DNA of 64,000 bases from Bacillota bacterium (lineage in GTDB: Bacteria > Bacillota > JAAYKD01): NCBI GenBank assembly GCA_963666425.2, contig OY762825.2, forward strand, positions 1,824,001 through 1,888,000, written 5' to 3'. This document shows positions 11,382 to 25,859 of this stretch, piece by piece. Within the stretch, counting starts at the first letter, position 1; each line of letters opens with the position of its first letter. The translations under genes were made by a program, and so were the position numbers. The notes beneath the pieces were generated by a model that was not told where the DNA came from, did not search any database, and saw only the letters and a list, made by a program, of their open reading frames with translations.

Positions 11382-12710
11382 ATGTCTCAATCCAAAGTCG
11401 CTCCCAGCGTTTTTCAGCAATTGCTTGGCTTTACCGTACCGCTGATCTTGACCGGTTTACTGCAGCAGCTTTATTCGATCACCGACTCGTTGATCCTCGG
11501 TAATTTTGTCGGGCAAAGTGCCTTGACTGCGGTGGGTAGCGCCAGCTCCCTGCTCAACGTTTTTCTGTTTGTCATTACGGGATTAGTGACCGGTTGCACC
11601 ATTATGGTTTCTCATGCTTTCGGTGCCAGAGATTACAAGGCGATCGGTCGTATTACGGTGACCTTCTCCGTTTTCCTGACGCTTGGAGGTATCATTGCAG
11701 GTGTGCTTGGCGCCTTGAGCAACCGCAGTCTGCTTGTGCTGTTGAATACGCCGGTTGAATTTCTGCAGGATGCGGTTGTATATTTGACGATCATGATGAT
11801 TGGGATGCCGTTTCTTGTTTTTTACAACTTGAGCAGTGCCGTGGTGCGCGGCATCGGAGACAGTAAGACGCCACTCTATGCTCTAATCATTACCAGCATC
11901 GTTAATATTAGCTTGAATCTGCTTTTCGTGCTGGGATTTCAGGCAGGAATTGCCGGCTCCGCTTGGGCAACGGTCTTATCACAGATGCTTTCTGCCTTCT
12001 TTTTGCTCTTAGTGCTGCGCAAAATGCTGCGGAACTTCCAATTTCAACCCTCCCTCGCTGCGATTGATTTGCCGATTTTTCGGGAAGGCCTTCGGCTCAG
12101 CCTGCCGCGTGTCTTGCTCTCTTTTATCTCCTCCGGCGGCAGCATGCTGCTGCAGAATGTCCGCAATGGATTGGGTTATGATGCCGTTACTGCAATCACG
12201 ACTGCTTATAAAATTGATACCTTGATCGTCTTGCCGGCAACCAATATCGCAACTGCCGTGACGATTTTTACCGGTCAAAGCCTAGGTGCTGCCGACCGTC
12301 AGCGAGCGGAAGAAGGATTAAAAAAAGGATTGCAGATTGTTCTGCTCTATACTGTGGTGGCAGCTGTGTTGTTGATCACAGTCGGCAGTTATGTACTTGG
12401 TTTTTTTGGGATTTCAGATCAAATTGTGGCACTCGGACAACGCTTTTTCTTGCTTTGTGCCTTGTTTTACCCTATTATGGGGATCAAAGAAGTGCTGTTA
12501 TCTTATCTGCAGGGCTGCAAGGATGTGACTTTTGTTTCTTTTTGCGCCATTGCAGCCTTGTTCGTCCGGGTGGGGCTTTCCTATCTCTTGGTGGATCGTT
12601 TGGGCTTTGATGTGATCGCGGTAGCAGAGATGGCAAGTTGGGTCTTTGCTGCTTGCCTTGCTTATAGGCGTTATCGCACGATGAAAAAGAGAGCAATCAA
12701 GCAATTCTAA
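11382..12710 (+). CDS. MATE family efflux transporter
   Basis: LLQQLYSITDSLILGNFVG, RGIGDSKTPL, VNISLN, GIAGSAWAT, GQSLGA; about 12 TM segments. Confidence 0.93.
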   Translation: MSQSKVAPSVFQQLLGFTVPLILTGLLQQLYSITDSLILGNFVGQSALTAVGSASSLLNVFLFVITGLVTGCTIMVSHAFGARDYKAIGRITVTFSVFLTLGGIIAGVLGALSNRSLLVLLNTPVEFLQDAVVYLTIMMIGMPFLVFYNLSSAVVRGIGDSKTPLYALIITSIVNISLNLLFVLGFQAGIAGSAWATVLSQMLSAFFLLLVLRKMLRNFQFQPSLAAIDLPIFREGLRLSLPRVLLSFISSGGSMLLQNVRNGLGYDAVTAITTAYKIDTLIVLPATNIATAVTIFTGQSLGAADRQRAEEGLKKGLQIVLLYTVVAAVLLITVGSYVLGFFGISDQIVALGQRFFLLCALFYPIMGIKEVLLSYLQGCKDVTFVSFCAIAALFVRVGLSYLLVDRLGFDVIAVAEMASWVFAACLAYRRYRTMKKRAIKQF

Positions 12711-12861
12711 AAATGGACCAGAGAGAATGCAGTAAAACAGGCGCTCGAACGGGTCGGTCTGCTGTGCTGTCTTGATGATGTCGCTCGGCTGGGATGCGCC
12801 GGAGAGCACGTTCTTCACGGTTATGATGGACTTTATCAGAAAAAAAGGGAGGCTGCGGAAG

Positions 12862-13782
12862 ATGGAAAGAAAATTGAAAATTGCAGTGATTCAGGAAGCA
12901 CCGGTGTTGTTTGACCTGGAAAAGACGATGGAAAAGACGATTCAGCTCAGCCGGGAGGCTGCGGCAAGCGGAGCAAAACTGATTGTTTTTCCAGAAAGTT
13001 TTATCCCCTGCTACCCCAGAGGGTTGACCTTCGGTATGGTGATCGGCAGTCGGACCAGCGAAGCCAGAGAAGACTTCCAGAGATACTATGAGAATGCGGT
13101 GGCGGTACCCGGTCCGGATGTAGACAGATTGGCTGAACTAGCCAAAGAACTGCAGGTTTATCTCTCCATCGGCGTGACCGAAAAGAATGGCAACGGTTTG
13201 GATGGCACGCTGCATTGCAGTAATTTATTCTTTGGTCCCGAGGGTTATTTAGGGCGGCACAGAAAACTGAAACCGACCGCCGGAGAGCGGGTCATCTGGG
13301 GTGAGGATGACGGATCGACCATGACAGTGATCGATACACCTTATGGTAAAATGGGTTCTCTGATTTGTTGGGAGAATTATATGCCTTTGGCCAGGATGGC
13401 CATGTATTTGAAAGGTGTCAACCTTTATATCGTGCCAACTGCCGACCAGAGAGAAGTCTATCAAGCAACCTTGCGGCATATCGCCTTCGAAGGCAGATGT
13501 TTTGTGATTGCCAGCAATCAATATGTGGAAAAATCGATGTATCCCACCGATCTGAAATATTACAAGGATCTCGAAAGTCAACCGGAAGTGATGTGCCGAG
13601 GCGGCAGCTGCATCATCAATCCCTATGGTGAGTATGTGGCGGGACCGTTATTTGATCGGGCCGGCATCCTCACGGCTGAAGTTGATTTGGATCAAATCAG
13701 TCAGTCTAAATTCGATTGGGATCCGACCGGGCATTACAACCGTCCGGAGCTCTTTCAATTCAAAGTGAATGAGCAGCGCTAG
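12862..13782 (+). CDS. Nitrilase (carbon-nitrogen hydrolase family)
   Basis: Glu-Lys-Cys triad in FPES, HRKLKPT, ICWENYMPL; C-terminal DPTGHYNRPE; ATG 12862 after GGGAGG. Confidence 0.92.
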   Translation: MERKLKIAVIQEAPVLFDLEKTMEKTIQLSREAAASGAKLIVFPESFIPCYPRGLTFGMVIGSRTSEAREDFQRYYENAVAVPGPDVDRLAELAKELQVYLSIGVTEKNGNGLDGTLHCSNLFFGPEGYLGRHRKLKPTAGERVIWGEDDGSTMTVIDTPYGKMGSLICWENYMPLARMAMYLKGVNLYIVPTADQREVYQATLRHIAFEGRCFVIASNQYVEKSMYPTDLKYYKDLESQPEVMCRGGSCIINPYGEYVAGPLFDRAGILTAEVDLDQISQSKFDWDPTGHYNRPELFQFKVNEQR

Positions 13783-13842: not shown

Positions 13843-14343
13843 TTAGGCAGGCATTATTTTTTCCAGCAGGACCGAGCCATCGACCGGATCATCCGGGTGT
13901 TCAATGCGAAGAATGCGAAAACCGCATTTATCAATGTAAAAGTGATGATTTCGTTTTGAAAATAAAGGTGTTTCGGTATGCCATACCTTTGTCTTTGGGT
14001 AAGTTGCTTCTACCCAGTGCCAGACTTCGACGCCTAATCCTTGGTTCTGCCTATTTGTATCCAAAAATAGACAGCCCAGCCGATTGTCATCGGCTTTGTT
14101 GAGGCCGATCCATAAAATCACACATCCGACCGCTTGCCCTTCCAGCTCGATTTTGAAAGCGGTTGCCTGTGGATGCAGTGCCCATTTCCGTAGAAACTCA
14201 CCATTGTTGTAACCCGGAGGACCATCGTCTACCCCGCGATGGATCTGGGCATCATAATTGAAAGCGCGAGTCATGATTTCCGTCAGCGGTTCGATATCGC
14301 TTGCCTGAAAAGGGATCAATTCCAATCCTTGATATGGTTTCAT
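13843..14343 (-). CDS. GNAT family N-acetyltransferase
   Basis: GPPGY motif, QNQGLG AcCoA motif, TP.FSKRNHHFY.KCGF; ATG 14343 after GGAGG. Confidence 0.85.
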   Translation of the reverse strand: MKPYQGLELIPFQASDIEPLTEIMTRAFNYDAQIHRGVDDGPPGYNNGEFLRKWALHPQATAFKIELEGQAVGCVILWIGLNKADDNRLGCLFLDTNRQNQGLGVEVWHWVEATYPKTKVWHTETPLFSKRNHHFYIDKCGFRILRIEHPDDPVDGSVLLEKIMPA

Positions 14344-14389
14344 TTTTCCTCCATTTTTCTTTTTCACTTGTGTTTTTTAAGATTTTAGC

Positions 14390-15367
14390 TTACTTTTTCA
14401 AAGAAACCGGGTAAAGCAGATCAAGCTGATGTTCACTGTTGCTCGGCCAATTCGCATGGCAATTGTAGAGCCAATTCAAATGCTCTTCCAGCAGACCGTA
14501 CATACAGGCGCCATTGTCATCCAGACAAGCACTGCCGTATTTCTGGTTATCATTGTTTACCCATTCAGATAACCATTCCCATTCATGAAAATCACCCAAC
14601 TCAATCGTATGAGCAGCGTAGAGTCCACCCGGGAACTGCTTCTTTGTTAAGGGAGCGCTTACCTCCATCTCATCAGGGATTGTCACCCAAGTCTCATAGC
14701 CATATTCGGGTGAATGGAACGATGGATTGGGATGGTTGAAACCAAAGACGCGCGCATCCGGTTTGATTTCGTAAAGATGACTGTCGTTGACGAATTTTTC
14801 CAGCAGATCAGCGGAGTGCTGTTCTGGGTCGGGACCAAAAAAATGACTTGCCGCAACGGTTGCAGGAGCGAGCCAAATGATCCTGACATCATTGAGCTTT
14901 GTGAGAGGGGAACTGGGTTTTTCCATACTGATTTCCTCCTTAAAATTGATTCTGGAAAGAGGAACCGTATCGACGAGATCGAGTGAGACAGTATCACTGA
15001 ATCGGGCAAGAATGGTATCGGTATTGAAATCTTGCAGGATCATAGCCAGTATCATCCGCAAGGTGGTACGAATCTGATTCAGAGCCGCCACTTGATTGTC
15101 CATTTTATCGATGTTTTGTTGAAAAACAGCAATCAGTTCATCGAAATCATCACTTTTCAAAATAGTGTCAATTTGCTTGAGTGGAAGACAGAGTTTACGT
15201 AAAATGACAATGAACTGCAGACGCTTGATTGCGGTTTCATCGTAGACACGATAAGCATAATCATCAATTCTCTGACTTTCAATCAGACCAAGTTCTTCAT
15301 AATAGCGAAGCGCTCTGGTTGAGATAGCAAAAGCTTTGGATACCTGCGATATTGTGCTCAGTTTCAT
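14390..15367 (-). CDS. MerR-family regulator with GyrI-like effector domain
   Basis: TISQVSKAFAISTRALRYYEELGLI...YRVY HTH; C-terminal RVFGFNHP...GYETWVTIP...FPGGLYA. Confidence 0.92.
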   Translation of the reverse strand: MKLSTISQVSKAFAISTRALRYYEELGLIESQRIDDYAYRVYDETAIKRLQFIVILRKLCLPLKQIDTILKSDDFDELIAVFQQNIDKMDNQVAALNQIRTTLRMILAMILQDFNTDTILARFSDTVSLDLVDTVPLSRINFKEEISMEKPSSPLTKLNDVRIIWLAPATVAASHFFGPDPEQHSADLLEKFVNDSHLYEIKPDARVFGFNHPNPSFHSPEYGYETWVTIPDEMEVSAPLTKKQFPGGLYAAHTIELGDFHEWEWLSEWVNNDNQKYGSACLDDNGACMYGLLEEHLNWLYNCHANWPSNSEHQLDLLYPVSLKK

Positions 15368-15389
15368 CTTTCTTCCTCCTTCCATTTTT

Positions 15390-15420
15390 AGGATACAGCA
15401 CGACGCGACGTCAAAGTCAA
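15390..15420 (-). promoter_or_regulatory. MerR-type promoter with 19-bp spacer and internal dyad
   Basis: Minus strand TTGACT (15420-15415), 19-nt spacer containing GACG-TCG-CGTC, TATCCT (15395-15390). Confidence 0.8.
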
Positions 15421-15618
15421 GTATTTATACAAATATTCTCTATTTTTTTTCGAATCCCCTGCTTTGAGCGAAGCGGAAAAACTGAGCAATAGCCGGCGTT
15501 GATTGATCGGCAAAATTTAATGCATTAATTCTTGGAATAAATAGAAGATGGATGGGGTAGCGCAGAATATTCTATGAGGAATAATAGCATTTGAAAATTA
15601 CAGCACAAAAAGTATCAA

Positions 15619-15647
15619 TTGACGCTGCTCTGATATGAGAATATAAT
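15619..15647 (+). promoter_or_regulatory. Sigma-A promoter of the kdpDE-like pair
   Basis: TTGACG 15619-15624, 17 nt, TATAAT 15642-15647. Confidence 0.8.
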
Positions 15648-15730
15648 CAGGTTGATATAGAAAATAAAAATCAGACAAAAAGTACAGTTTTTTCTATCGA
15701 TCATTTTCATGGAAGGATTAGGACGATTGT

Positions 15731-17254
15731 ATGGCAGCACAACAGAAGAATTATAAAGATTTGCTCAATTTGCTTTATATGGGTGCTTATCTGGCCTTGG
15801 CTTCCTTGGTTGGCTATTTGTTTCGTTATATCCATTTTTCGGAAACGAATATTATTATGGTTTATCTGCTGGCGGTATTATTGACTGCGCGGCAAACCAG
15901 CGGCTATGCCTATGGTATCTTAGCTGCAATCATCGCAACTTTTGCTTTCAATTATTTCTTCACGGCACCTTATTTTACATTAGCCGTTTATGATCCGAAA
16001 TACCTGGTCACTTTTGTTGTTTTTATTATCACCGCAATGATTACCAGTGCCTTGACTTCTCATGTCAAGCAAAGCGCAATTAAAGCAAATGAAAAAGAAG
16101 CAGAAACAAAAGCGCTTTACCTGCTCACCGATCATTTAACGGATGCGGAAAACATGCATGATATTGCTGAAATCGCCGTCAAAATCATCAGTGATGTCAT
16201 GCAGTGTCAGGCAGGGTGTCTCTGCTTTGACGAAAATAGCCTGCCGGAGAAGAAATTCGTCCAGCAGATTTCCCCAGACGAACGCATCGATCGCGAGGTG
16301 GCCGAGCCGGAAGAATTGAGGCACCGGATCGAAGGTCTGCAAACAGATCGTGTCAACGGCAAGGAGTTTCAGGAATGGCTGATTTTTGGCCGGGATAATG
16401 TGCTTGGTTTGATCCGTATTCCTGTTCAACGCACGGAAGATCTGACCGAAGCACAGACACGATTGCTTCGCTCCATGATTGAAAGTATCGCTTTAGCCAT
16501 GGACCGATACCGCTCTGCGCAGCAAAGGCAGAAATACAGAGAAGCGACTGTACAGGAACGCTACCGAGGTAATTTGCTAAGGGCAATTTCTCATGATTTA
16601 CGCACTCCGTTGTCAGGAATCATGGGGACTGCTGAAATGCTGATGGATATGTCGAACGCAAATGATCCCCGGCATGATTTAGCAAAAGTGATTTATAATG
16701 ATGCGGATTGGCTGTATTCTTTGGTGGAAAATATCCTGAGTCTGACTCGTTTACAAGAAGGTAAATTGATTCTGAAAAAGCAGCTTGAGGCTGTTGAGGA
16801 AGTCATCGGAGGGGCGGTCCATCATATTAAGCAACACGCTCCGGAGCATGAAATCACAGTGAAAATCCCAGAGGAACTTTTACTTGTTCCCATGGATGCA
16901 AAATTAATCGAACAAGTTTTGATCAACTTATTGGATAATGCCGTAAAACACACCGCAAAAGAAAACGAAATCCAGATCACTGTTTTTCAGAATAAAGCTG
17001 CGAAAGAAGCGGTGTTTTCCGTGGCAGACCGAGGTGAAGGGATTGCACCCATCGATTTGCCGCATATCTTTCAAATGTTTTATACATCACAAACCAAGCA
17101 AGCAGATGCGAAGCATGGAATTGGTTTAGGTCTCTCCATCTGCGATGCGATCGTGAAAGCACATGGAGGAACGATTGAAGTTCATAACCGTTCTGACGGA
17201 ATCGGAGCGGAATTTATCTTTTCTTTGCCGATGGAGGTCAATCAAGATGGATAA
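15731..17254 (+). CDS. kdpD: KdpD-like sensor histidine kinase lacking the N-terminal KdpD and Usp domains
   Basis: Four-TM region NIIMVYLLAV...AFNYFFTAPYFTL, GAF-like region, H-box NLLRAISHDLRTPL, N-box NLLDNAVKH, DRGEGI and GIGLGLSIC; 507 aa. Confidence 0.85.
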   Translation: MAAQQKNYKDLLNLLYMGAYLALASLVGYLFRYIHFSETNIIMVYLLAVLLTARQTSGYAYGILAAIIATFAFNYFFTAPYFTLAVYDPKYLVTFVVFIITAMITSALTSHVKQSAIKANEKEAETKALYLLTDHLTDAENMHDIAEIAVKIISDVMQCQAGCLCFDENSLPEKKFVQQISPDERIDREVAEPEELRHRIEGLQTDRVNGKEFQEWLIFGRDNVLGLIRIPVQRTEDLTEAQTRLLRSMIESIALAMDRYRSAQQRQKYREATVQERYRGNLLRAISHDLRTPLSGIMGTAEMLMDMSNANDPRHDLAKVIYNDADWLYSLVENILSLTRLQEGKLILKKQLEAVEEVIGGAVHHIKQHAPEHEITVKIPEELLLVPMDAKLIEQVLINLLDNAVKHTAKENEIQITVFQNKAAKEAVFSVADRGEGIAPIDLPHIFQMFYTSQTKQADAKHGIGLGLSICDAIVKAHGGTIEVHNRSDGIGAEFIFSLPMEVNQDG

Positions 17255-17945
17255 TTTAGGAGCAAGAATTCTGGTAGTGGAGGATGACGCCCAGATCCGG
17301 AATTTTATCTGCTATGCGCTGCGCAGTGAAGGTTATCACTATATAAGTGAACACTCCGCGCAGGGAGCCTTGAGCATTCTCGTTTCCGAACCGGTAGATT
17401 TAATGCTGCTTGATCTTGGATTGCCTGATTTTGACGGCATGGATGTGATTAAAAAAGTACGTGAATGGTCTGAAATACCGATTATTGTGGTCTCAGCGCG
17501 GGATCAGGATAAAGAAAAAGCAGCCGCACTTGATCTGGGAGCGGATGATTATTTAACAAAACCTTTTTCTGCAACAGAGCTGCTGGCACGGATTCGCGTC
17601 GCTTTGCGTCATTTATATCAAAAAAATAAGAACCAGCAGCGTTGTTATTATCAAATTGGCGATTTGCGTATTGATTTGGATAAACATTTGGTGTTTTTAA
17701 AAGAAATTGAGATGCATACCACCCCAATGGAATATAGTCTTTTAGTTTTGTTCTTTAAAAACGCCGGAAAAGTTTTAACGACTGGGTTAATTATCAGAGA
17801 AATTTGGGGAACCGAATATGGCAGCGATACGCAGGCTTTAAGGACGCTGATGGCGGGATTACGAAGAAAAATTGAAACCGATCCGGCAAAACCACGCTAT
17901 ATCATGACAGAAATTGGTGTCGGTTACAGGCTGGTGGATGAGTGA
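17247..17945 (+). CDS. kdpE: KdpE-like OmpR-family response regulator
   Basis: ILVVEDD, LLDLGLPDFDG, ALDLGADDYLTKPF, LRRKIETDPAKPRYIMTEIGVGYR; ATG 17247 overlaps the kinase 3' end. Confidence 0.9.
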   Translation: MDNLGARILVVEDDAQIRNFICYALRSEGYHYISEHSAQGALSILVSEPVDLMLLDLGLPDFDGMDVIKKVREWSEIPIIVVSARDQDKEKAAALDLGADDYLTKPFSATELLARIRVALRHLYQKNKNQQRCYYQIGDLRIDLDKHLVFLKEIEMHTTPMEYSLLVLFFKNAGKVLTTGLIIREIWGTEYGSDTQALRTLMAGLRRKIETDPAKPRYIMTEIGVGYRLVDE

Positions 17946-17957
17946 GAAGCAACAACG

Positions 17958-17990
17958 AACCGCTTTGAGTGCAAATTCAAGGCGGTTTTG
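17958..17990 (+). terminator. Terminator after kdpE
   Basis: AACCGCTTTGA...TCAAGGCGGTTTTG. Confidence 0.75.
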
Positions 17991-18009
17991 TTCTGTACAA
18001 AACAGAATT

Positions 18010-18076
18010 CCCACACCATCCTCACAATAAAAACGCCACCCTCACACCATTCTCACAGTGAATTTGTTACTATAAT
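18010..18076 (+). promoter_or_regulatory. Two pairs of 11-bp-periodic C(C/T)CACA boxes plus a -10 element; putative KdpE-activated promoter
   Basis: CCCACA 18010 / CTCACA 18021 and CTCACA 18041 / CTCACA 18052; TATAAT 18071-18076; no consensus -35. Confidence 0.75.
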
Positions 18077-18154
18077 GTTAACAAGCGAGCGGATCTGAAA
18101 GCCGCTAACGGGGCATGAATACTTTTTCTGACATTTGATATGGAGGGCAATAAA

Positions 18155-18562
18155 ATGGAAAACGAGCACGAGGAAGAAGAAAGTCGAAAGCGGAAAGTTC
18201 TGTGCGATTCCTTTCGTGATTTGAGTGGAAAGCTGAATTATCCGGCCTGCGAACGCCTACTTCGTTCTGCCATGGCAGAAGATCCGCATTCTCCCGTTCC
18301 GCACAACCTGATGGGAGTGCTTTTGGAATACCAGAATGACCATCTCGCGGCGATGAAGCATTTTCGGGCGGCATGGGCACTCGAACCTACTTATCTTCCG
18401 GCCAGGCTGAATTTAGAGCATTACAGCAGTTTGACTCTGCGCGGACCCTATTTGATTGATGAAGGGGATTCTACAGCAGCAGAAAACAAAGATACTTACA
18501 AAATAGAATATGACGAACAGGGTATTGGACATGTTTTAAAAAGGCAAGGTGAATTAGATTGA
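18155..18562 (+). CDS. Small TPR-like protein
   Basis: AMAEDPHSPVPHNLMGVLLE...AAMKHFRAAWALEPTYLPARLNL is TPR-patterned; GGAGG RBS. Confidence 0.7.
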   Translation: MENEHEEEESRKRKVLCDSFRDLSGKLNYPACERLLRSAMAEDPHSPVPHNLMGVLLEYQNDHLAAMKHFRAAWALEPTYLPARLNLEHYSSLTLRGPYLIDEGDSTAAENKDTYKIEYDEQGIGHVLKRQGELD

Positions 18563-19014
18563 GAAACCAAGGAGTAAAGCCAGCCAAACAAGATTTCACG
18601 ATTATTGTTGGCTGTGGCTGTATGGGAGCTTGTTTTGCCAACGTTTTAGCAGAAAAGCAAAGAAGAGTTTTGGTTTTGGATCGGGAAGCAAAATCCTTGC
18701 TGAAATTATCCCCGACCTATAACGGAGCCACGATGGTTGGCGATGGCACCGATCTCGATCAATTACGTGAGATTGGGATGGAAGATGCCACATTTGTTTT
18801 GGTTTCCACCAATAGCGACACAGCGAATTTAATGATTGCTCAGATGGCAAAGGAAATTTTCCAAATAGAGCAAGTGATTGCGAAACTGAACGAATTGGAG
18901 TATGCCGAGGTTTATCGGGAATTCGGGATCAAAACCGTTGCTCCCAGCGCGTTGACAGCTGCGGCACTGATTCACTTGTTGGATTATCCTGAAAAGGAGC
19001 GGGTAATTGAATGA
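18559..19014 (+). CDS. trkA: TrkA-family protein, RCK_N domain only
   Basis: IIVGCGCMG, VLVLD, VGDGTD, TNSDTANL; 151 aa. Confidence 0.85.
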   Translation: MRNQGVKPAKQDFTIIVGCGCMGACFANVLAEKQRRVLVLDREAKSLLKLSPTYNGATMVGDGTDLDQLREIGMEDATFVLVSTNSDTANLMIAQMAKEIFQIEQVIAKLNELEYAEVYREFGIKTVAPSALTAAALIHLLDYPEKERVIE

Positions 19015-19703
19015 AAAGAGCGCTTTTAATTGGCGGACTGCGCAAGGCGCAGCTTCTTGCTCATTTTCTGATCGGAAAAGGGTATTCTGTCACAGCAGTC
19101 AATCTCAGTTATCAGGATTGCTTAAAACTCACCGAAATGGATCATCTGCTCGTTGTGAATGGTGATGGCACAAAACCCTGCGTTCTGCAGCAGGCAAGTG
19201 TTGCTGATGTGGATTTGGCGATTGCGCTCACACCGAAGGATGAGGATAATCTTGTTATTTGTGAATTGTGTAAAAGAGTTTTTCGTGCCAAGAAAACAGT
19301 GACGATCGTCAATGACCCCAGCCAAATCACTTTTTTTACGAAAATCGGTATTGATTCCGTGATCTGTTCCGATGGCGCGGTGACGGACCGGATCATCAAG
19401 CAAATAGCAATCAACGATCTCGCGACATTGATACCGGTGATTGACGGCCGAATCAATGTCGTGAAGGTAGATGTTCTGCCTGATTCACCGATTACTGGCA
19501 AGAAATTATGGGAAATCGGTTTGCCACAAGAAGTGATGATCAGCTGCATTCTGCGTGCGGACGAAAATTTCATCCCCCGAGGAGATACAAGGATTTTGGC
19601 GGGCGATATCCTGCTCCTGATTGCATCCAATTATCAGGAAGTAGAGATCATTAAAATTCTGACCGGTGCGGCATTACCGTCGGCAAGAGGAGAATCCATA
19701 TGA
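19011..19703 (+). CDS. trkA: TrkA-family protein (RCK_N + RCK_C), degenerate nucleotide loop
   Basis: LLIGGLRKA, NGDGT, TPKDEDNL, SPITGKKL...IPRGDTRILAGD. Confidence 0.85.
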   Translation: MKRALLIGGLRKAQLLAHFLIGKGYSVTAVNLSYQDCLKLTEMDHLLVVNGDGTKPCVLQQASVADVDLAIALTPKDEDNLVICELCKRVFRAKKTVTIVNDPSQITFFTKIGIDSVICSDGAVTDRIIKQIAINDLATLIPVIDGRINVVKVDVLPDSPITGKKLWEIGLPQEVMISCILRADENFIPRGDTRILAGDILLLIASNYQEVEIIKILTGAALPSARGESI

Positions 19704-20335
19704 ATATTATCATTGTTGGCTGTGATTTACTGGGCAGTATTTTAGCGAATAATCTGTCCGATGTTGGCCATAATGTTTCTGTGATTGATCGGGACAGTGA
19801 ACGGCTGAATGTACTAGGCAGCGGTTTTAATGGCGTAAAAATAAAGGGAATCGAATATGATAATGAAATTTTAGTAGAAGCAGGAATTCGCGAGGCAGAC
19901 ATTCTCTTGGCTGTCACAACGGATGAAAACATCAATATTACGGTATCACTGATCGCGAAAGAGATGTACAAGGTTCCCAGAATCATTGCTCGTATTATGA
20001 ATCCAAACAGAAAGTATATTTACGAAAACTTGCAGATAGAAACCATCAATCCGATCCAATTAGAAGTGGATGTCCTAGAGACAAAGCTGGCATTGAAGAG
20101 AGAAGCTTCTCTGTTTGATTTGAATGTAGAATATGAAATCATTGGCGTTACCGTGAAGCATGCAAAAAAAATCTCGGTGCAGGAGATTGAAGAACAATTT
20201 AATTGTATCATTTCTGCAATCGATAAGGGGAATACGATTTTATTGCCGCTCAAAAGTGAAGTCATCGAACATGGAGAGCGAATTATTTGCACCATCAGAA
20301 AGAAAGACAAAGAACGTCTGGTATCATTACTATAA
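19700..20335 (+). CDS. trkA: TrkA-family protein (RCK_N + divergent RCK_C)
   Basis: MNIIIVGCDLLG...GHNVSVID, AGIREAD, TTDENINI, IIARI. Confidence 0.85.
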   Translation: MNIIIVGCDLLGSILANNLSDVGHNVSVIDRDSERLNVLGSGFNGVKIKGIEYDNEILVEAGIREADILLAVTTDENINITVSLIAKEMYKVPRIIARIMNPNRKYIYENLQIETINPIQLEVDVLETKLALKREASLFDLNVEYEIIGVTVKHAKKISVQEIEEQFNCIISAIDKGNTILLPLKSEVIEHGERIICTIRKKDKERLVSLL

Positions 20336-20348
20336 AGGAGCGTCATTT

Positions 20349-20993
20349 ATGAAAGCGATCGTGATTGGCGGCGGCAAAGTAGGCTATTATTTGGTTAAAA
20401 CTTTGAGAGAAAGAAAATACGACGTTACATTGGTAGAAAAGGAACAAGACCTTTGTCGTACCGTTGCCGAGGATGTTGATATCTCCGTAATTTGTGGGGA
20501 TGGCACGGATATTGATGTTTTAAAAGATGCCGGAATTGAAGAAGCAGAAGTCATTGCAGCTGTCACTGGTACGGATGAAGTGAATCTAGTCATCTGTAAA
20601 ATAGCAAAAAGCAGTTTCAAAATCGTAGAAGTTATTACGAGAGTCAATAACCCCAAAAATATCCCAATGTTTAAAGCATTGGGCGCAGATAAAACCGTCT
20701 GCAGCACTGAAGTGATCGCCAATCTGATTGAATACGAATTTGATAAGGGGAATTTTAAAGTCGTACACGTTTTGGAACGCGGCACCATGATTTTGGCTGA
20801 GATTAAAATCGAGAAAACAAACGATTGGTGTGATCAATTGGTGAAAGACTTAGTGCTGCCCGAGGAATGTATCCTGATTTCTATCTTGCGGAAGGAAAAG
20901 GTGATTTATCCCAGAGGAAATACACGAATTTTAGAATCGGATAATATACTGGTCATTGTAAATAAAGCAAGCTTAGCGGAACTCAGAAAATGA
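20349..20993 (+). CDS. trkA: TrkA-family protein (canonical RCK_N + RCK_C)
   Basis: MKAIVIGGGKVG, CGDGTD, TGTDEVNL, IYPRGNTRILESD; ATG 20349 after AAAGGAG. Confidence 0.9.
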   Translation: MKAIVIGGGKVGYYLVKTLRERKYDVTLVEKEQDLCRTVAEDVDISVICGDGTDIDVLKDAGIEEAEVIAAVTGTDEVNLVICKIAKSSFKIVEVITRVNNPKNIPMFKALGADKTVCSTEVIANLIEYEFDKGNFKVVHVLERGTMILAEIKIEKTNDWCDQLVKDLVLPEECILISILRKEKVIYPRGNTRILESDNILVIVNKASLAELRK

Positions 20994-21020
20994 AATTGAC
21001 TTGGAACAGGAGCCCATAAA

Positions 21021-21125
21021 ATGCATGAGATGAAGAAGGATTTTATTGGAGTGGTAGTTGAGCTGTTATCTGTGAGCGGGTTCATCCTATTTTTATTTCT
21101 TTCCATAGCGATCGTAATGAGGTAA
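21021..21125 (+). CDS. Putative 34-aa single-pass membrane peptide (below ORF-track cutoff)
   Basis: AGGAG upstream of ATG 21021; MHEMKKDFIGVVVELLSVSGFILFLFLSIAIVMR; TAA ends 4 nt before the trkH ATG and fills the intra-operon gap. Confidence 0.7.
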   Translation: MHEMKKDFIGVVVELLSVSGFILFLFLSIAIVMR

Positions 21126-21129
21126 GTAT

Positions 21130-22668
21130 ATGGTTAATTCAAACGTAAAGTATACGGATTTTAAGATAATCTGCTATTATACTGGGTATGTCATAATCGG
21201 TTTTGCATTATTGATGTTGCTTCCGTTCCTTGTAGCGTTGCTTTTTCGCGAACAGAATCCCGCACTCGATTTTCTGATCAGCATTGCCATCACAATCAGT
21301 ATCGGATTATCACTTGTCATAATTGGCAGGGAAACCCGTGAAAAAAAGTCCTATGTACAATGGAAGCTCGGTTTTGTCGTGGCTTCCCTGTCCTGGTTGC
21401 TCGCTATGGTGTTGGGAGCGATTCCTTACTTATTGAGTGGTCATATCGGTTCCTTACTGGATGCTTGTTTTGATGTCATGAGCGGACTTACCACTACCGG
21501 TTTAGTGTTGACGCAGGATTTGGATCATCTTTCTTATGGGTTGAATCTATGGCGGCATTTGTTGACTTTTGTTGGCGGACAGGGAATTGTGGTCTTGGCG
21601 CTCTCTTTTTTGGTCAAAGAAACCAGCGGTGCCTATAAATTTTATGTAGGGGAAGCGAAAGATATTGAATTGGTTCCCAATGTCAAAGGCACTGCGAGAA
21701 TCATCTGGAAAATTAGCTTGGTTTATCTCGTCATCGGAACATTTGCCCTTTGGATTAATGGGATGATGATTGGCTTGCAGCCAGTCTCTGCTTTTTTTCA
21801 CGGGCTATTTATGTTTGTTTCTTCCTGGAGCACCGGTGGATTTGCGCCAAATTCACAGAATATCATGTACTACCACAGCTTGTCTTACGAAATGATCACG
21901 GTTATTTTTCTTATTCTGGGCTCCTTTAATTTTGGTCTGCATTATGCCATCTGGCAAGGCAAGAAAAAGGAATTGATTAGAAATATTGAAACGCAGGTTT
22001 TTTTTATTACTGCGTTTATAGCTTCGCTTGGTGCAGTAATCGGTTTAGCGAAATTGAATGTCTATTCTGATGCGGTGTCGATGTTCAGACGAGTGGTTTA
22101 CAACGTTTTGTCTGCTCAGACCACAACCGGTTTTGGCAATGTATACGCCAGACAGTTTGCCTTGGAATGGGGAGATTTTGGTATCTTGATCATGGTCATC
22201 GTCATGTTGATCGGTGGCTCGGCCTGTTCTACTGCCGGTGGTTTTAAAGGGCTGCGGGTTGGCGTGGTAATCAAGGGCTTTTTTGCGGATATTCGTAAAA
22301 TACTGTCACCGGAAAGAAATATGCGCGTTTATAAATTCCATCATATCAAAGACTATGTTTTGGAGGATGGAATTGTCAAAACTTCTGCCCTAATTATACT
22401 CTGTTATATTGTCTTATTTTCGGCTGGAACAGCCTTGGGAGCTTACTATGGTTATCCTCTCGCTGAATCAGCATTTGAAGCTGCTTCCGTAACCGGTAAT
22501 GTAGGTTTATCCATAGGGATAACTTCCCCAAGTATGCCTGTTCTGATGAAAATCTATTATATTACTGCAATGTATTTGGGAAGGCTGGAGTTTTTATCTG
22601 TATTTGGTATGATTGGATATTTCCTCGGAGGTATAAAAAAACTATGCGCAAAAGCAAGAAAAATATAG
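21130..22668 (+). CDS. trkH: TrkH-family K+ uptake membrane subunit
   Basis: Four pore loops SGLTTTGL, SSWSTGGF, SAQTTTGF, SVTGNVGL; IGGSACSTAGGFK; MYLGRLE. Confidence 0.95.
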   Translation: MVNSNVKYTDFKIICYYTGYVIIGFALLMLLPFLVALLFREQNPALDFLISIAITISIGLSLVIIGRETREKKSYVQWKLGFVVASLSWLLAMVLGAIPYLLSGHIGSLLDACFDVMSGLTTTGLVLTQDLDHLSYGLNLWRHLLTFVGGQGIVVLALSFLVKETSGAYKFYVGEAKDIELVPNVKGTARIIWKISLVYLVIGTFALWINGMMIGLQPVSAFFHGLFMFVSSWSTGGFAPNSQNIMYYHSLSYEMITVIFLILGSFNFGLHYAIWQGKKKELIRNIETQVFFITAFIASLGAVIGLAKLNVYSDAVSMFRRVVYNVLSAQTTTGFGNVYARQFALEWGDFGILIMVIVMLIGGSACSTAGGFKGLRVGVVIKGFFADIRKILSPERNMRVYKFHHIKDYVLEDGIVKTSALIILCYIVLFSAGTALGAYYGYPLAESAFEAASVTGNVGLSIGITSPSMPVLMKIYYITAMYLGRLEFLSVFGMIGYFLGGIKKLCAKARKI

Positions 22669-23159
22669 TTTTCTTGAGCATTTTCTTTCTTTTCCTAGTG
22701 ATGTCTGCATCCAGAAGCTATGCCGCTGAAACAGTAACCATCAATCAATTGATTGAAAATACAGCAAAATATGATAACCTGGTCGTAACGGTAGAAGGTG
22801 AAATCATCGGCGAAGCACTGGAAAGAGGAGATTTTGCCTGGATCAATCTCAATGATACGACAAACGCAATCGGTATTTGGATGAAGTTAAGCGATGCGCA
22901 ACAATTGCAATATTACGGGGATTATAGTCATAGGGGTGACATAATAAAAATCACAGGAAAATTCTCAAGAGCATGTGCAGAACACGGTGGTGATTTTGAT
23001 ATTCATAGCAATCGGATTGAGGTTGTTAAAGAAGGATGGATCGTCAAGGAAATTGTTTCATCTTATAAAATCATGGTCACTGTGGTATTACTGATCATAG
23101 CCAGCATTCTGCTGGCATTGTATATCAAATTAGTGGGAAAAAAGGAATTGGAAAACTAA
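22644..23159 (+). CDS. Exported, C-terminally anchored OB-fold-like protein
   Basis: Signal peptide ending SYA; VTVEGEIIGE...LNDTTNAIGIW...GDIIKITGKF OB-like pattern; C-terminal TM plus Lys tail. Confidence 0.7.
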   Translation: MRKSKKNIVFLSIFFLFLVMSASRSYAAETVTINQLIENTAKYDNLVVTVEGEIIGEALERGDFAWINLNDTTNAIGIWMKLSDAQQLQYYGDYSHRGDIIKITGKFSRACAEHGGDFDIHSNRIEVVKEGWIVKEIVSSYKIMVTVVLLIIASILLALYIKLVGKKELEN

Positions 23160-23193
23160 GCTCACAATGGGTTGCTTTAATGAAAGTATAGTA

Positions 23194-23225
23194 AAGCCGG
23201 TACTGCTTTTCTGCGGTACCGGCTT
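23194..23225. terminator. Bidirectional terminator
   Basis: AAGCCGGTAC...GTACCGGCTT between convergent operons. Confidence 0.8.
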
Positions 23226-23236
23226 GATGTTATACT

Positions 23237-24520
23237 TTAATACATCTTTTTTTTCTGCGGTGGATCAACTTTGACCAAAACCTGAATAATGCGGTGTTCC
23301 TGCATCTTATCCACCGTGACGGTTAAATTTTTGTAAGTAAACGTATCGCCCGGATTGGGAAAACCGTTGAGCATTTCAATCGCCCAACCACCGACTGTGG
23401 TATAATCGCTCTCAAAATCACGGTCATCCAGGTCGAAATACTCCAGAAAATCATAGATGCTGATGTCGGCATCCACTTCGTGAATATTCTCTCCGACATC
23501 CGTGAATTCTTCCACGATTTCGTCCGATTCGTCCCAGATTTCACCCACCAGTTGTTCCAAAACATCTTCCATGGTAACCACACCCAGCGTGCCGCCGTAT
23601 TCATCGGTTACAATCGCCATATGCATCTTGCGTCGTTTCAATTCGGCTAAAACAGCAGGCAGTTTCATGGATTTATGAATAAAACAGACATCCATCAGCA
23701 GATCACGTAAGGAAAACTCTTTGGTGTCGACCACCTGCTTAAAAAAGTGATTCAGATAAAGAATGCCGATGATATTATCGATGCTGTCTTCATAAACCGG
23801 GATGCGCGAATAACTGGAGTGATTGGCCAATTCAATGATGGAATCCAAATCATCATCGATATCTATCGCCAGCATATCAACACGGGGTGTGATAATCTCC
23901 TGCGCAGAAATTTCGGAGAATTCGATAGCGGACTGCAGTAAATCACTGCGTTCCTCATCGATGATCCCTTCGTCCTCAACGGTTTCAATAATGGAAACAA
24001 GGTCTTCTTCCGTGACAGAAGGTTCTTTTTTCTGAGTCGCCCAGGTTCGATTCATGACATCCAGCAATTTCATGATTACAAAGACAATCGGCGCGGTAAT
24101 CAGCATCAAAAAACGCAGAAAAGGTGCTGCTGCAAGGGTAAAGACATCGCAATGGTCTTTGGCTAAAATTTTCGGGACGATCTCACCAAAAATCAGGATG
24201 ATCACCGTCATCGCAACTGTTGCGATGGCTGCGCCGGATTCTCCCATCAGCTTGATAGCGATCACGGTTGCAATCGCAGAGGAGGCCATGTTCACCAGAT
24301 TGTTGCCAATCAGAATAGTGGTCAGCGCTTTATCGTAGCGCTCGTAAATATAGTAAGCTAATTTTGCTTTCTTACTGCCGCTTTCCGCGGCTTTTTTCAT
24401 GCGCATTTTATTGGCAGAAGCGAAGGCTATTTCCGATCCGGAAAAGAAAGCCGAAAAGCAAATCAGCACGGTAATCAATATATAAGGGCCATACGGACTG
24501 TCGTCCATGGGGAAATTCAC
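23237..24520 (-). CDS. CNNM/CorC (HlyC, DUF21-CBS-CorC) family transporter
   Basis: SAFFSGSEIAF, ILIGNNLVN, FGEIVPK, TPRVDM, YSRIPV, DEYGGTLG, EQLVGEIWDE. Confidence 0.93.
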   Translation of the reverse strand: MNFPMDDSPYGPYILITVLICFSAFFSGSEIAFASANKMRMKKAAESGSKKAKLAYYIYERYDKALTTILIGNNLVNMASSAIATVIAIKLMGESGAAIATVAMTVIILIFGEIVPKILAKDHCDVFTLAAAPFLRFLMLITAPIVFVIMKLLDVMNRTWATQKKEPSVTEEDLVSIIETVEDEGIIDEERSDLLQSAIEFSEISAQEIITPRVDMLAIDIDDDLDSIIELANHSSYSRIPVYEDSIDNIIGILYLNHFFKQVVDTKEFSLRDLLMDVCFIHKSMKLPAVLAELKRRKMHMAIVTDEYGGTLGVVTMEDVLEQLVGEIWDESDEIVEEFTDVGENIHEVDADISIYDFLEYFDLDDRDFESDYTTVGGWAIEMLNGFPNPGDTFTYKNLTVTVDKMQEHRIIQVLVKVDPPQKKKMY

Positions 24521-24593: not shown

Positions 24594-25859
24594 TTAGTCG
24601 TTGATCTTCAGCAATAATTTAATGATGCGCTTGTGATCAATCTTTGTGACTGTGATGGTTACACCATGATATTCAAAGCTGTCGCCTTCCTTAGGTACGT
24701 AATTTAAGTTTTCCAGTACCCAGGAACCGAGTGTTTTATGCCAAAGCTCTTCTTTATCATAATTGTTAAAATGCATCAGTTCAAAGGCATCGTCCACATC
24801 GAAATTGGCGCTTGCTTCAAAACGATTACCGCCCAGTGGCTTAAAATCTTCTAAAACCTCGTCGTCTTCATCCCAAATTTCACCGACCAATTCTTCTAAA
24901 ATATCTTCAACGGTCATAATCCCCAAAGTACCGCCATAGTCATCACTGACGATGGCCATGTGCAGTTTTCGACGGCTCATCTCCTGCAGAAGATCATCTA
25001 TTTTAGTTGTCTTGGGAACGAAATAGGGAGCATCTAAAATGGAGCGCAGGTTGATGGTATCGCCCTGCTTCATATACAGCTTTAAAAATTTCCTGATTTG
25101 TAAAATGCCGATGATATGATCGATATGATCTTCATAGACAGGCAAACGCGAAAATTTCACTTCTTTGATGATTTTTAAAATTTCGGCACAGCTTGTGTCG
25201 ACATCCAGCGCAACCACATCCACACGGGAAGTCAAAGCATCCTGTGCCGTAACATCGGCAAACTCCAGGGCAGAGTGAATCAGATCACTCTTATTTTGTT
25301 CCAAGCTGCCTTCTTCTTTGATGGTTTCGATAATATCGTAGAGTTCGTCTTCTGTGACCGTTGGTTCTTCGTCACGATGAAAAAGTTTGGAAACAGCAGT
25401 GCTGATGGCGGTGAAAATAAAGGCAAGCGGGGTTAAGACCTTGACCAGAAAATAGAGAGAATCCGATACATTGAGAGCAAAAGACTCACTCTGCGCTTTG
25501 GCAAAGGTTTTTGGCAGCATTTCACTGATGAAAAAAACAACGACTGTGACAATCAGCGTGCTGGCAGTGACCGATCCTTCTCCCCAGGTTTTGGTGGCAA
25601 TCAAAGTTGCCAAGCTTGCGCAGCCGATATGCATCAGGTTGTTGCCAATCAGCAGGGTCGTGAGGGATTTGTCAAAGTTGTTCAGAATATACATTGCCTT
25701 TTTGGCACGCGGATCTCCATTTTCCGCATTGTTTTTCATGCGGATTTTATTCAGAGAGGCAAAAGACATTTCCGAACCGGCAAAATAGCCGCCACCCAGA
25801 ATTAAAAGAAACAGCAGTAAGTAGTAATACCAACTGTCACTACCCATACGGGCAACCAC
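24594..25859 (-). CDS. CNNM/CorC family transporter, second paralogue
   Basis: YFAGSEMSF, LLIGNNL, SEMLPK, FSRLPV, DDYGGTLG, EELVGEIWDE; start may be ATG 25847. Confidence 0.93.
   Translation of the reverse strand: MVARMGSDSWYYYLLLFLLILGGGYFAGSEMSFASLNKIRMKNNAENGDPRAKKAMYILNNFDKSLTTLLIGNNLMHIGCASLATLIATKTWGEGSVTASTLIVTVVVFFISEMLPKTFAKAQSESFALNVSDSLYFLVKVLTPLAFIFTAISTAVSKLFHRDEEPTVTEDELYDIIETIKEEGSLEQNKSDLIHSALEFADVTAQDALTSRVDVVALDVDTSCAEILKIIKEVKFSRLPVYEDHIDHIIGILQIRKFLKLYMKQGDTINLRSILDAPYFVPKTTKIDDLLQEMSRRKLHMAIVSDDYGGTLGIMTVEDILEELVGEIWDEDDEVLEDFKPLGGNRFEASANFDVDDAFELMHFNNYDKEELWHKTLGSWVLENLNYVPKEGDSFEYHGVTITVTKIDHKRIIKLLLKIND

Follow-up and report, generated by a model that had tools for sequence, protein, structure and literature searches.

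In textbooks, KdpD and KdpE regulate a single target, the Kdp pump, and Trk and Ktr are constitutive transporters whose gating by RCK rings is post-translational. A cluster of ten genes in a Bacillota bacterium raises the question of whether a KdpDE-like two-component pair may control a potassium importer other than Kdp. The cluster lies within a stretch of 64,000 nucleotides (nt), referred to here as the window (OY762825.2, positions 1,824,001-1,888,000; GCA_963666425.2, C1:1824001-1888000), in a genome of 3.2 Mb. It encodes a short KdpD-like kinase and a KdpE-like response regulator, followed by a small TPR-like protein, four RCK proteins (A1 to A4), a membrane peptide of 34 amino acids (aa), a TrkH-family pore subunit and a membrane-anchored OB-fold protein (Table 1). 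The cluster is likely a self-contained potassium-uptake module controlled by the KdpDE-like pair, with the OB protein and the peptide as partners of TrkH. The ten plus-strand genes were all found at the positions named in the initial annotation, and the eight coupled genes that it had described after the regulator gene (TPR, four RCK, peptide, trkH and OB) were confirmed by open reading frames (ORFs) and domain matches. The regulator gene overlaps the stop of the kinase gene by 8 nt. Gene junctions consist of overlaps of 4-25 nt or gaps of 4-27 nt, and the OB gene starts inside the last 25 nt of trkH. When the genes were compared with those of one genome of the same genus, which has all ten genes in an identical order, dN/dS was found to be 0.05-0.24 in all ten (0.076 for the kinase, 0.18 for TPR, 0.21 for A1, 0.14 for A2, 0.045 for A4 and 0.24 for the peptide). 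Because all are under purifying selection, the ten ORFs are real genes and not chance ORFs.

Linkage of the pair to potassium transport genes

The TrkH protein was used as a query against one genome per species. A total of 131 relatives was obtained, and the best 80 loci (60-76% identity) were kept; they came from Oscillospiraceae, Lachnospiraceae, Clostridiaceae, Acetobacterium, Sedimentibacter, Acidaminococcaceae and others. ORFs were called in each of the 80 loci and compared with the ten window proteins, and a complete TrkH ORF was found in 78. The OB gene was present directly after trkH in all 76 loci with 700 nt or more of downstream sequence, and the same was true of 20 of 20 loci that are more distant. 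An equivalent of the peptide, an ORF of 30-45 aa ending just 5' of trkH, was found in 70 of the 73 evaluable loci, and A3- and A4-like genes were located 5' of the peptide in nearly all related loci. These counts bear out the proposal of the initial annotation that the operon contains accessory genes outside the standard Trk model. Carriers of the module that are in culture and non-pathogenic include Anaerobium acetethylicum, Sedimentibacter saalensis, Caproiciproducens faecalis and Clostridium grantii.

Linkage of the pair was counted in the 43 of 80 loci with at least 6 kb of flank on each side. A linked pair was defined as a kinase ORF of 470-570 aa with at least 85% query coverage plus a regulator with 45% identity or more, both no farther than 9 kb away. 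A short kinase and a regulator were found beside the Trk module in 35 of these 43 loci, upstream on the same strand in 23, downstream and convergent in six, upstream and divergent in three, and downstream on the same strand in three. Because the linkage survives four arrangements, a functional tie between the pair and the Trk module can be argued. A lack of conserved gene order elsewhere, which the initial annotation had named as an outcome that would refute its reading, was not observed: the order is conserved for both the pair and the OB gene. Its count of four trkA genes is correct for the window and does not extend to most relatives, which have two RCK genes (A3- and A4-like); A1 and A2 travel with the kinase and regulator. 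Four RCK genes were present in nine of nine downstream-type loci, where the operon order is kinase-regulator-A1-A2, and in five of the 23 upstream same-strand loci. The TPR gene was found in 18 of 23 upstream same-strand, three of three divergent and none of nine downstream loci.

In the reciprocal direction, a sample of 401 genomes spread evenly over the phylum was used. The OB protein was found in 22 genomes at a cut-off of E≤1e-10, and A3-A4-TrkH-OB was present in all 20 loci fetched. DUF4118, the membrane domain of the kinase, gave 73 matches in 62 genomes, and 22 of these were in open frames of 480-580 aa. When these 22 short kinases (the window, L088, L090 and 19 further loci) were examined, potassium transport genes were found to adjoin 19 of them, mostly not Kdp. 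The neighbours were an OB-type Trk in three cases, other TrkH/KtrB-family genes in eight (L109, L110, L113, L115, L119, L120, L126 and L127; three confirmed by Pfam and the others matched by BLAST at 23-31% identity), RCK together with a cation P-type ATPase in one (L118), RCK alone in one (L114), KimA-like permeases in three (L111, L121 and L124) and kdpABC in three (L116, L117 and L122). No potassium-related neighbour was seen for three (L112, L123 and L125), of which the L123 kinase is at a contig end. This distribution supports the view that the signal of the short kinases may be potassium related, and that the idea would extend beyond the operon in the window.

In L110 and L113, the order is kinase-regulator-TPR-A1-A2 followed by a TrkH of another type (496-498 aa), which shares 29-30% identity with the window TrkH. 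Because these two loci hold the kinase-regulator-TPR-A1-A2 genes before a different TrkH, the cluster in the window looks like a fusion of such a unit with an A3-A4-peptide-TrkH-OB unit. Other transporters were also noted at the short-kinase loci. A P-type ATPase of 947 aa with Cation_ATPase_N/C domains (L118 13642-16485, plus strand) is in a string with the short kinase, the regulator and A1/A2, and a cation P-type ATPase of 854 aa, matched by BLAST only, is in the same kind of string in L110 (2279-4843, minus strand). The KimA-like permeases of L111, L121 and L124 (G104, G150 and G372) are 636-643 aa long, with AA_permease_2 and a weak K_trans match, and L124 also contains a KefC-like exchanger with RCK domains near the short kinase.

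KdpA (PF03814) was searched in the genomes of 36 of the 54 pair-bearing loci and of all eight long-flank loci without the pair. It was over the cut-off in 14 of the 36 pair-bearing genomes. It was not found in the other 22, which include the isolate genomes L008, L028, L041, L059 and L063; many of the remaining ones are metagenome-assembled genomes of unstated completeness. KdpA was found in six of the eight long-flank genomes without an adjacent pair. In an Acetobacterium genome (G443, C22:156317-157962, minus strand), kdpA seemed to be split in two by an in-frame TAA.

The short pair and its candidate promoter element

In Pfam searches, the window kinase contained DUF4118 at residues 19-121 (PF13493, E=1.5e-30), HisKA at residues 279-344 (PF00512, E=1.2e-15) and HATPase_c at residues 389-502 (PF02518, E=1.5e-27). 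DUF4118 is a four-helix membrane domain, and the first membrane helix is 18 residues from the start. No match to PF02702, the N-terminal serine kinase domain of KdpD, or to Usp was found in this kinase by Pfam at E≤0.01, in agreement with the initial annotation, which had described it as starting at the membrane domain without the N-terminal inputs. With the KdpD equivalog NF007793 the kinase scored 289.1 bits against a cut-off of 1123, and the match covered only positions 408-883 of the 895 in the profile. The regulator contained Response_reg and Trans_reg_C domains; its best NCBIfam family was KdpE (NF007820), with 216.5 bits and thus under the cut-off of 325, followed by MtrA with 181.5 bits.

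The initial annotation had seen no kdpABC in the window, which is correct: the sole KdpA match of the genome was at C1:2553415-2555061, outside it. When the whole genome was checked as it had suggested, however, kdpFABC was found to be present, and the description of the Trk operon as standing "instead of kdpFABC" is wrong for this organism. A canonical set comprising kdpF (29 aa), kdpA, kdpB, kdpC, kdpD (906 aa, with PF02702 and DUF4118) and kdpE is located at C1 ~2553300-2561200, approximately 715 kb away. This kdpFABC has its own full-length kdpD/kdpE and is not encoded with the kinase-regulator pair of the window. The window kinase shares 38% identity with the part of the 906-aa KdpD from the membrane domain to the C-terminus, and the window regulator shares 47% with the canonical KdpE. 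In total, the genome has two DUF4118 kinases, one PF02702 domain (in the 906-aa KdpD) and three TrkH-family genes. On sequence grounds, the pair in the window is a second, shortened paralogue of KdpDE, and not a KdpDE redirected from a missing pump. The "instead of Kdp" picture may hold in the relatives in which KdpA was not found.

In one study (PMC11018627), the N-terminal domain of KdpD is described as an atypical serine kinase that phosphorylates KdpB. In E. coli, KdpB is the subunit of the pump on which this domain acts. Because KdpB, the substrate of the lost domain, is absent from the Trk system, the truncated architecture would be explained, and loss of the N-terminal domain would account for the short form of the kinase. 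In L047, L060 and L034, a full-length kdpD-kdpE directly adjoins the short pair, next to kdpABC. An origin of the short pair by tandem duplication of kdpDE would fit such an arrangement. In a genome of the same family, L107, a 670-aa kinase with Usp-DUF4118-HisKA-HATPase_c and without PF02702 (7737-9749, minus strand) adjoins OB-TrkH; its architecture is intermediate between the full KdpD and the short form.

A separate promoter after the regulator gene had been proposed, and a region of this kind was located there, with a terminator-like hairpin, direct repeats and a TATAAT box. The repeats form a distal pair, CCCACA/CTCACA at about 18011 and 18021, and a proximal pair, CTCACA/CTCACA at 18041 and 18052, with a period of 11 bp within each pair and 31 bp between the two pairs. 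The proximal pair stops 13 nt before the TATAAT at 18071 and thus overlaps the −35 position. The exact double site CTCACA-N4-6-CTCACA has a single occurrence in the genome, CTCACA-N5-CTCACA at 18041, and two of the six genome-wide sites with the 11-bp period and up to one mismatch are at the Trk promoter. The two-pair layout was found 5' of the TPR gene in all five of the closest loci (L012, L013, L040, L071 and L078), whose regulators are 71-78% identical to that of the window and which also have a hairpin and T run at the equivalent place. Apart from these, the 80 loci yielded just two sites with no more than one mismatch, of which one is at another place in L040 and the other in L034. No such repeat box was found upstream of the kinase promoter at 15619..15647, which is probably a constitutive promoter of the kinase-regulator pair.

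In distant loci a related layout was observed, with the half-sites CTTACAC/CTTAACAC and CTTATA/CTTTATA. In the loci with a convergent pair operon, the Trk operon retains two repeat pairs just 5' of its −10 box, and the promoter of the kinase gene is of the ordinary extended −10 kind and lacks repeats. An nhmmer profile built from six distant-type sites gave seven non-seed hits with E<0.01 (L038, L044, L003, L033, L060, L068 and L004), all of them 5' of a Trk-operon gene or a TPR gene. No further hits with E<0.01 were found in ~1.3 Mb of loci and the whole 3.2-Mb genome. L004 bears its hit although it has no adjacent kinase. Weak minus-strand hits of the profile 5' of A1/A2-like genes in L003, L023, L033 and L057 (E 1.8-8.6) can only be called suggestive.

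The promoter of the canonical kdp operon in this genome carries the repeats CTTAAC and CTTAAT-N5-CTTAAT before TATAAT. The differing repeats, CTCACA versus CTTAAT, would fit what two insulated paralogous regulators need. The half-site of E. coli KdpE was looked for in one source (PMC4660055) and not found there, and no likeness of the window repeats to it is claimed. The conserved repeat element supports a regulator-dependent control of the Trk operon, and from such conserved cis-elements we infer that the operon may be inducible. In Clostridium algoriphilum (L070, 7286-9339), the repeat element was found after the regulator gene and before a lone TPR gene, and a gene for an MscS-family mechanosensitive channel is located 275 nt beyond this TPR gene.

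Predicted subunits of the Trk module

The window TrkH matched PF02386 with 133.7 bits against a cut-off of 27. When 39 TrkH sequences were aligned, the mean column identity was 73%, and T121-T122-G124, S234-G237, T332-G334, G456-V458 and G362-R376 were invariant, as were a Lys and an Arg in a glycine-rich intramembrane loop. Following the established SKT topology, we take these motifs to be the P-loop selectivity filters and the D3 intramembrane loop, and by established knowledge of SKT proteins the window TrkH would be a K+-selective pore.

The OB protein was modelled with AlphaFold2 at a pLDDT of 92.5 as a five-stranded OB barrel, flanked by a signal-peptide-like N-terminal helix and a C-terminal transmembrane helix. 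This topology suggests an extracytoplasmic OB domain. The top Foldseek matches were generic only, to the anticodon-binding OB domains of Asn/Asp/Lys-tRNA synthetases (E ~3e-6), and none of 61 members of the family passed any Pfam cut-off; PF01336 on the OB protein reached 16.2 bits against a cut-off of 27. Among the residues that are invariant or almost so are several acidic ones, one Cys and two His. Homology to KdpC was also considered and was ruled out, as hhalign against the KdpC of this genome gave a probability of 0.25%.

When TrkH and the OB protein were modelled together, an ipSAE of 0.80 was obtained in three runs, compared to 0.00 for the best of three controls. At least 97% of the contacts agreed between runs, and partner pLDDT was at least 83. 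The pass mark of the tool was reached by 116 of 157 solved complexes and by two of 215 mismatched pairs in calibration, counts that are only roughly valid for TrkH-OB, for which own alignments were used as input. To our knowledge there is no solved TrkH complex with an OB-like partner, and because of this it seems unlikely that the pass reflects memorisation of a known structure by the tool. In the model, the C-terminal helix of the OB protein packs against TrkH residues 41-70, and the barrel contacts the loops after the D1, D2 and D3 filters (132-136, 241-251 and 339-346) as well as residues 214-217 and 311-321. The modelled interface includes family-invariant OB residues. The OB domain is thus predicted to sit on the outer mouth of TrkH. 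Members of the peptide family share an invariant Gly, followed at four residues by a Glu, both before the hydrophobic helix, and the 34-aa peptide had no family match in the NCBIfam scan.

The four RCK genes, of 151-230 aa, reached best scores of 75-151 bits with TrkA equivalogs, whose cut-offs are at least 289. On tandem TrkA profiles, A1 and A3 aligned to the first half and A2 to the second half. The TrkA_C match of A3 was weak, with 21.7 bits against a cut-off of 27. The GxGxxG motif is kept in A1 and A4 (GGGKVG in A4) and is degenerate in the A2 class; the glycine motif of A3 is GCDLLG in the window and its congener and canonical in most relatives. A1 and A2 might stand in for the cytoplasmic sensor domains that the kinase lacks; this idea was neither supported nor contradicted, and in L110 and L113 the two genes simply come before another TrkH. 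The possibility that the extra RCK genes are pseudogenes or decaying was ruled out by their dN/dS of 0.14-0.21. The second TrkH of this genome is also preceded by paired half-size RCK genes, directly 5' of it at C1:1791359-1794052, ~30 kb before the window, and another half-size RCK pair is located at C1:1579447-1580792. For the small soluble protein, TPR_19 gave 22.6 bits, under the cut-off of 25. Its likeliest start is the ATG at 18155, behind a GGAGG ribosome-binding site, and an alignment of 38 sequences of the family showed the conserved core HNLLG...E...A...H.R.A..L.P...P...N.

Taken together, the following mechanism can be proposed. The pair would be transcribed from its own promoter, with the kinase corresponding to the histidine-kinase half of KdpD. 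Upon a signal that is presumably potassium related, the phosphorylated regulator would bind the two repeat pairs (18010-18057, overlapping the −35 position) and activate, rather than repress, the eight-gene operon. The resulting Trk complex would comprise the TrkH pore, the OB protein as a cap at the outer mouth with its C-terminal helix packed on TrkH, and the 34-aa peptide. Half-size RCK proteins, the universal A3/A4 pair plus the extra A1/A2 pair, would gate it from the cytoplasm, and the small TPR protein may be a further part of the complex. The flux would be K+ uptake, and the OB protein and the peptide may tune affinity, gating or stability.

Alternative explanations, related systems and neighbouring features

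One alternative is that the module is under the adjacent two-component system but serves a response or transport other than that of K+ limitation, such as Na+, NH4+, osmotic stress, pH or K+ release. With TIGR00933, the window TrkH scored 225.6 bits, under the cut-off of 331.15, and it is the weakest and most divergent of the three TrkH matches of the genome. Moreover, another cation could bind to the OB protein through its conserved His, Cys and acidic residues, and in L070 the MscS channel gene is beside the repeat-bearing TPR gene. All four glycine motifs of the selectivity filters are nevertheless invariant, the kinase retains the membrane and C-terminal parts of KdpD, and the K+ transporters that adjoin 19 of the 22 short kinases belong to several unrelated families. 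We consider an explanation of this type unlikely. It is very unlikely that the pair is a mere neighbour which controls other genes, for instance kdpFABC, while the Trk operon is constitutive and gated by RCK proteins only. The linkage is kept through four arrangements. The genome-unique repeats are located in the gap that separates the regulator gene from the operon, and in loci whose pair lies apart such an element remains with the Trk genes. The canonical kdp operon comes with a full-length KdpD/KdpE and with repeats of another sequence, and 22 of the 36 module-bearing genomes searched gave no KdpA. A neighbour without regulatory role would be in keeping with the eight of 43 long-flank loci in which the pair is missing, and with the part of one source (PMC3610689) in which Trk systems are described as classically constitutive. 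A shade less probable still is that the OB protein and the peptide are co-transcribed passengers, for instance a cell-surface protein unrelated to transport. The binding was modelled only, and relatives of the OB protein are labelled in their sources as hypothetical, DNA-binding protein or aspartyl/asparaginyl-tRNA synthetase. Against this speak the adjacency of the OB gene to trkH in every evaluable locus, with overlapping reading frames, the high complex score compared to the controls, the invariant residues at the interface, and the signal peptide and C-terminal anchor, which would put the OB fold outside the cell and make nucleic-acid binding unlikely.

Several observations weigh against a potassium-uptake module under control of the KdpDE-like pair, in addition to the TIGR00933 score. 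No pair was adjacent in L004, L024, L039, L043, L046, L048, L049 and L079, six of which are Acetobacterium records (the exceptions being L004 and L079). A DUF4118 kinase was adjacent in only three of the 20 more distant OB-type modules, and three others of these adjoin unrelated or longer kinases. The TrkH type of L110 and L113 was not found in the genome of the window. A quick tree of the regulators, in which row L060 (at 15485) is labelled as Trk linked though it touches both kinases, was poorly resolved and did not separate Trk-linked from kdp-linked regulators. The nhmmer profile from the distant sites missed the diverged element of the window itself, and continuity of the element between the clades (CTCACA versus the CTTAACA/CTTTATA type) would rest on layout and position. 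Finally, the location of the OB domain on TrkH comes from a model and not from a measurement.

Compared to the KdpD/KdpE-kdpFABC system, for which E. coli is the paradigm, the window has in common a kinase with DUF4118, HisKA and HATPase_c, a regulator best matched by KdpE, and a predicted binding site made of direct repeats spaced at 11 bp in front of a K+ transporter operon. In contrast, its kinase has no PF02702 or Usp match and is far under the equivalog cut-off, the predicted target is a Trk operon rather than a P-type pump, and the repeats are CTCACA and not CTTAAT. The TrkAH and KtrAB systems share with the window a TrkH pore with four P-loops and an intramembrane loop, and RCK genes 5' of it; the window adds the OB protein, the 34-aa peptide, half-size RCK genes (two or four) and a dedicated two-component linkage. 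In tandem TrkA (~458 aa), N1-C1-N2-C2 are in one polypeptide, whereas the RCK domains of the window are on four separate genes. Transcriptional control of a non-Kdp K+ importer has a precedent in ktrAB and kimA of Bacillus, which are under a c-di-AMP riboswitch. Unlike these, the window is predicted to be under two-component control, and an Rfam scan of 14000-24000 (E≤1) gave no riboswitch and nothing else but a chance match to a miRNA family at 23179-23243.

Two further comparisons concern the layout of the subunits. One source (PMC6255902) describes KdpC as periplasmically oriented and near the selectivity filter, where it may increase the affinity for K+; KdpF is described there as a single-spanner that resembles a lipid. 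As far as that description goes, the window resembles KdpFABC in combining an SKT pore with a single-pass protein that would place a domain at the outer mouth and with a tiny single-pass peptide. It differs in having no P-type ATPase and in the opposite anchoring of the OB protein (C-terminal helix after a signal peptide), and the likeness is one of layout only. In Thermotoga maritima, the gating ring of a putative Trk transporter is formed from two separately encoded proteins, TM1088A/B, according to another source (PMC4380455). Cytosolic RCK parts are likewise separately encoded in the window; the predicted halves of the window differ in being RCK_N (with or without a weak C) and RCK_N+C, in two such pairs.

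In full-text searches of the literature, which did not cover subscription journals, no short KdpD/KdpE pair linked to Trk, Ktr or KimA genes was found, and no OB-fold or small-peptide partner of TrkH was found. The findings connect N-terminally minimal KdpD/KdpE paralogues, by genomic linkage, to non-Kdp K+ importers, and the conserved promoter element makes this link directly testable. They also delineate a widespread TrkH subfamily with two conserved unannotated membrane partners, one of them a predicted pore-mouth cap. If the proposed module is correct, the subunit model of Trk would gain components, and the short kinases, in which only the membrane and C-terminal half of KdpD is kept, would amount to an experiment of nature on the K+-sensing part of KdpD. 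A broader idea, put forward tentatively and somewhat more apt to fail than to hold, is that TrkH, the OB cap, the peptide and a split RCK ring make up an unrecognised SKT holo-complex, an inducible high-affinity K+ scavenger of many Clostridia-like bacteria that replaces Kdp where Kdp is missing. It would be one arm of a wider reuse of the histidine-kinase half of KdpD and of KdpE paralogues for Trk, Ktr and KimA importers. This could explain K+ scavenging by Kdp-less anaerobes.

Table 1. Genes and predicted signals of the Trk cluster; positions refer to the window.
Feature	Position	Strand	Remarks
Sigma-70-like promoter TTGACG-17-TATAAT	15619..15647	+	11 of 12 consensus matches; upstream of kinase
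Kinase, 507 aa	15731..17254	+	Short KdpD-like; DUF4118, HisKA, HATPase_c
KdpE-like OmpR-family response regulator, 232 aa	17247..17945	+	Pfam, NCBIfam
Terminator-like hairpin after regulator gene	17957..17988	+	14-pair stem
Putative regulator-binding region and promoter	18010..18076	+	Direct repeats; TATAAT 18071-18076
Small soluble TPR-like protein	18155..18562 (135 aa) or from 18140 (140 aa)	+	
RCK protein A1, 151 aa	18559..19014	+	TrkA_N only
RCK protein A2, 230 aa	19011..19703	+	TrkA_N and TrkA_C
RCK protein A3, 211 aa	19700..20335	+	TrkA_N and weak TrkA_C
RCK protein A4, 214 aa	20349..20993	+	TrkA_N and TrkA_C
Single-pass membrane peptide, 34 aa	21021..21125	+	Stop 4 nt before trkH
TrkH-family pore subunit, 512 aa	21130..22668	+	Divergent subfamily; PF02386
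Membrane-anchored extracytoplasmic OB-fold protein, 171 aa	22644..23159	+	Predicted outer TrkH subunit
Strong hairpin between OB and convergent CNNM-family gene	23194..23225		-35.6 kcal/mol; z -6.47 for 23155-23245

The strong hairpin after the OB gene is probably a bidirectional terminator that closes the Trk operon. Convergent to the operon, and sharing this hairpin, are two tandem CNNM/CorC-type genes on the minus strand (23237-24520 and 24594-25859) with a CNNM membrane domain, CBS and CorC_HlyC, which encode putative Mg2+/Co2+ transporters. On the other side, a gene for a MerR-family regulator with a Cass2 effector-binding domain (14390-15385, minus strand) is divergent from the kinase gene, and beyond it are genes for a GNAT acetyltransferase (13843-14367, minus strand), a CN-hydrolase (12772-13782, plus strand) and a MatE exporter (11382-12710, plus strand). 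The G+C content of the window is 0.40-0.49 in 1-28000 (0.40-0.45 in the Trk cluster) and ~0.46-0.54 in 28001-64000, and the GC skew is positive in 1-28000 and near zero in 28001-64000.

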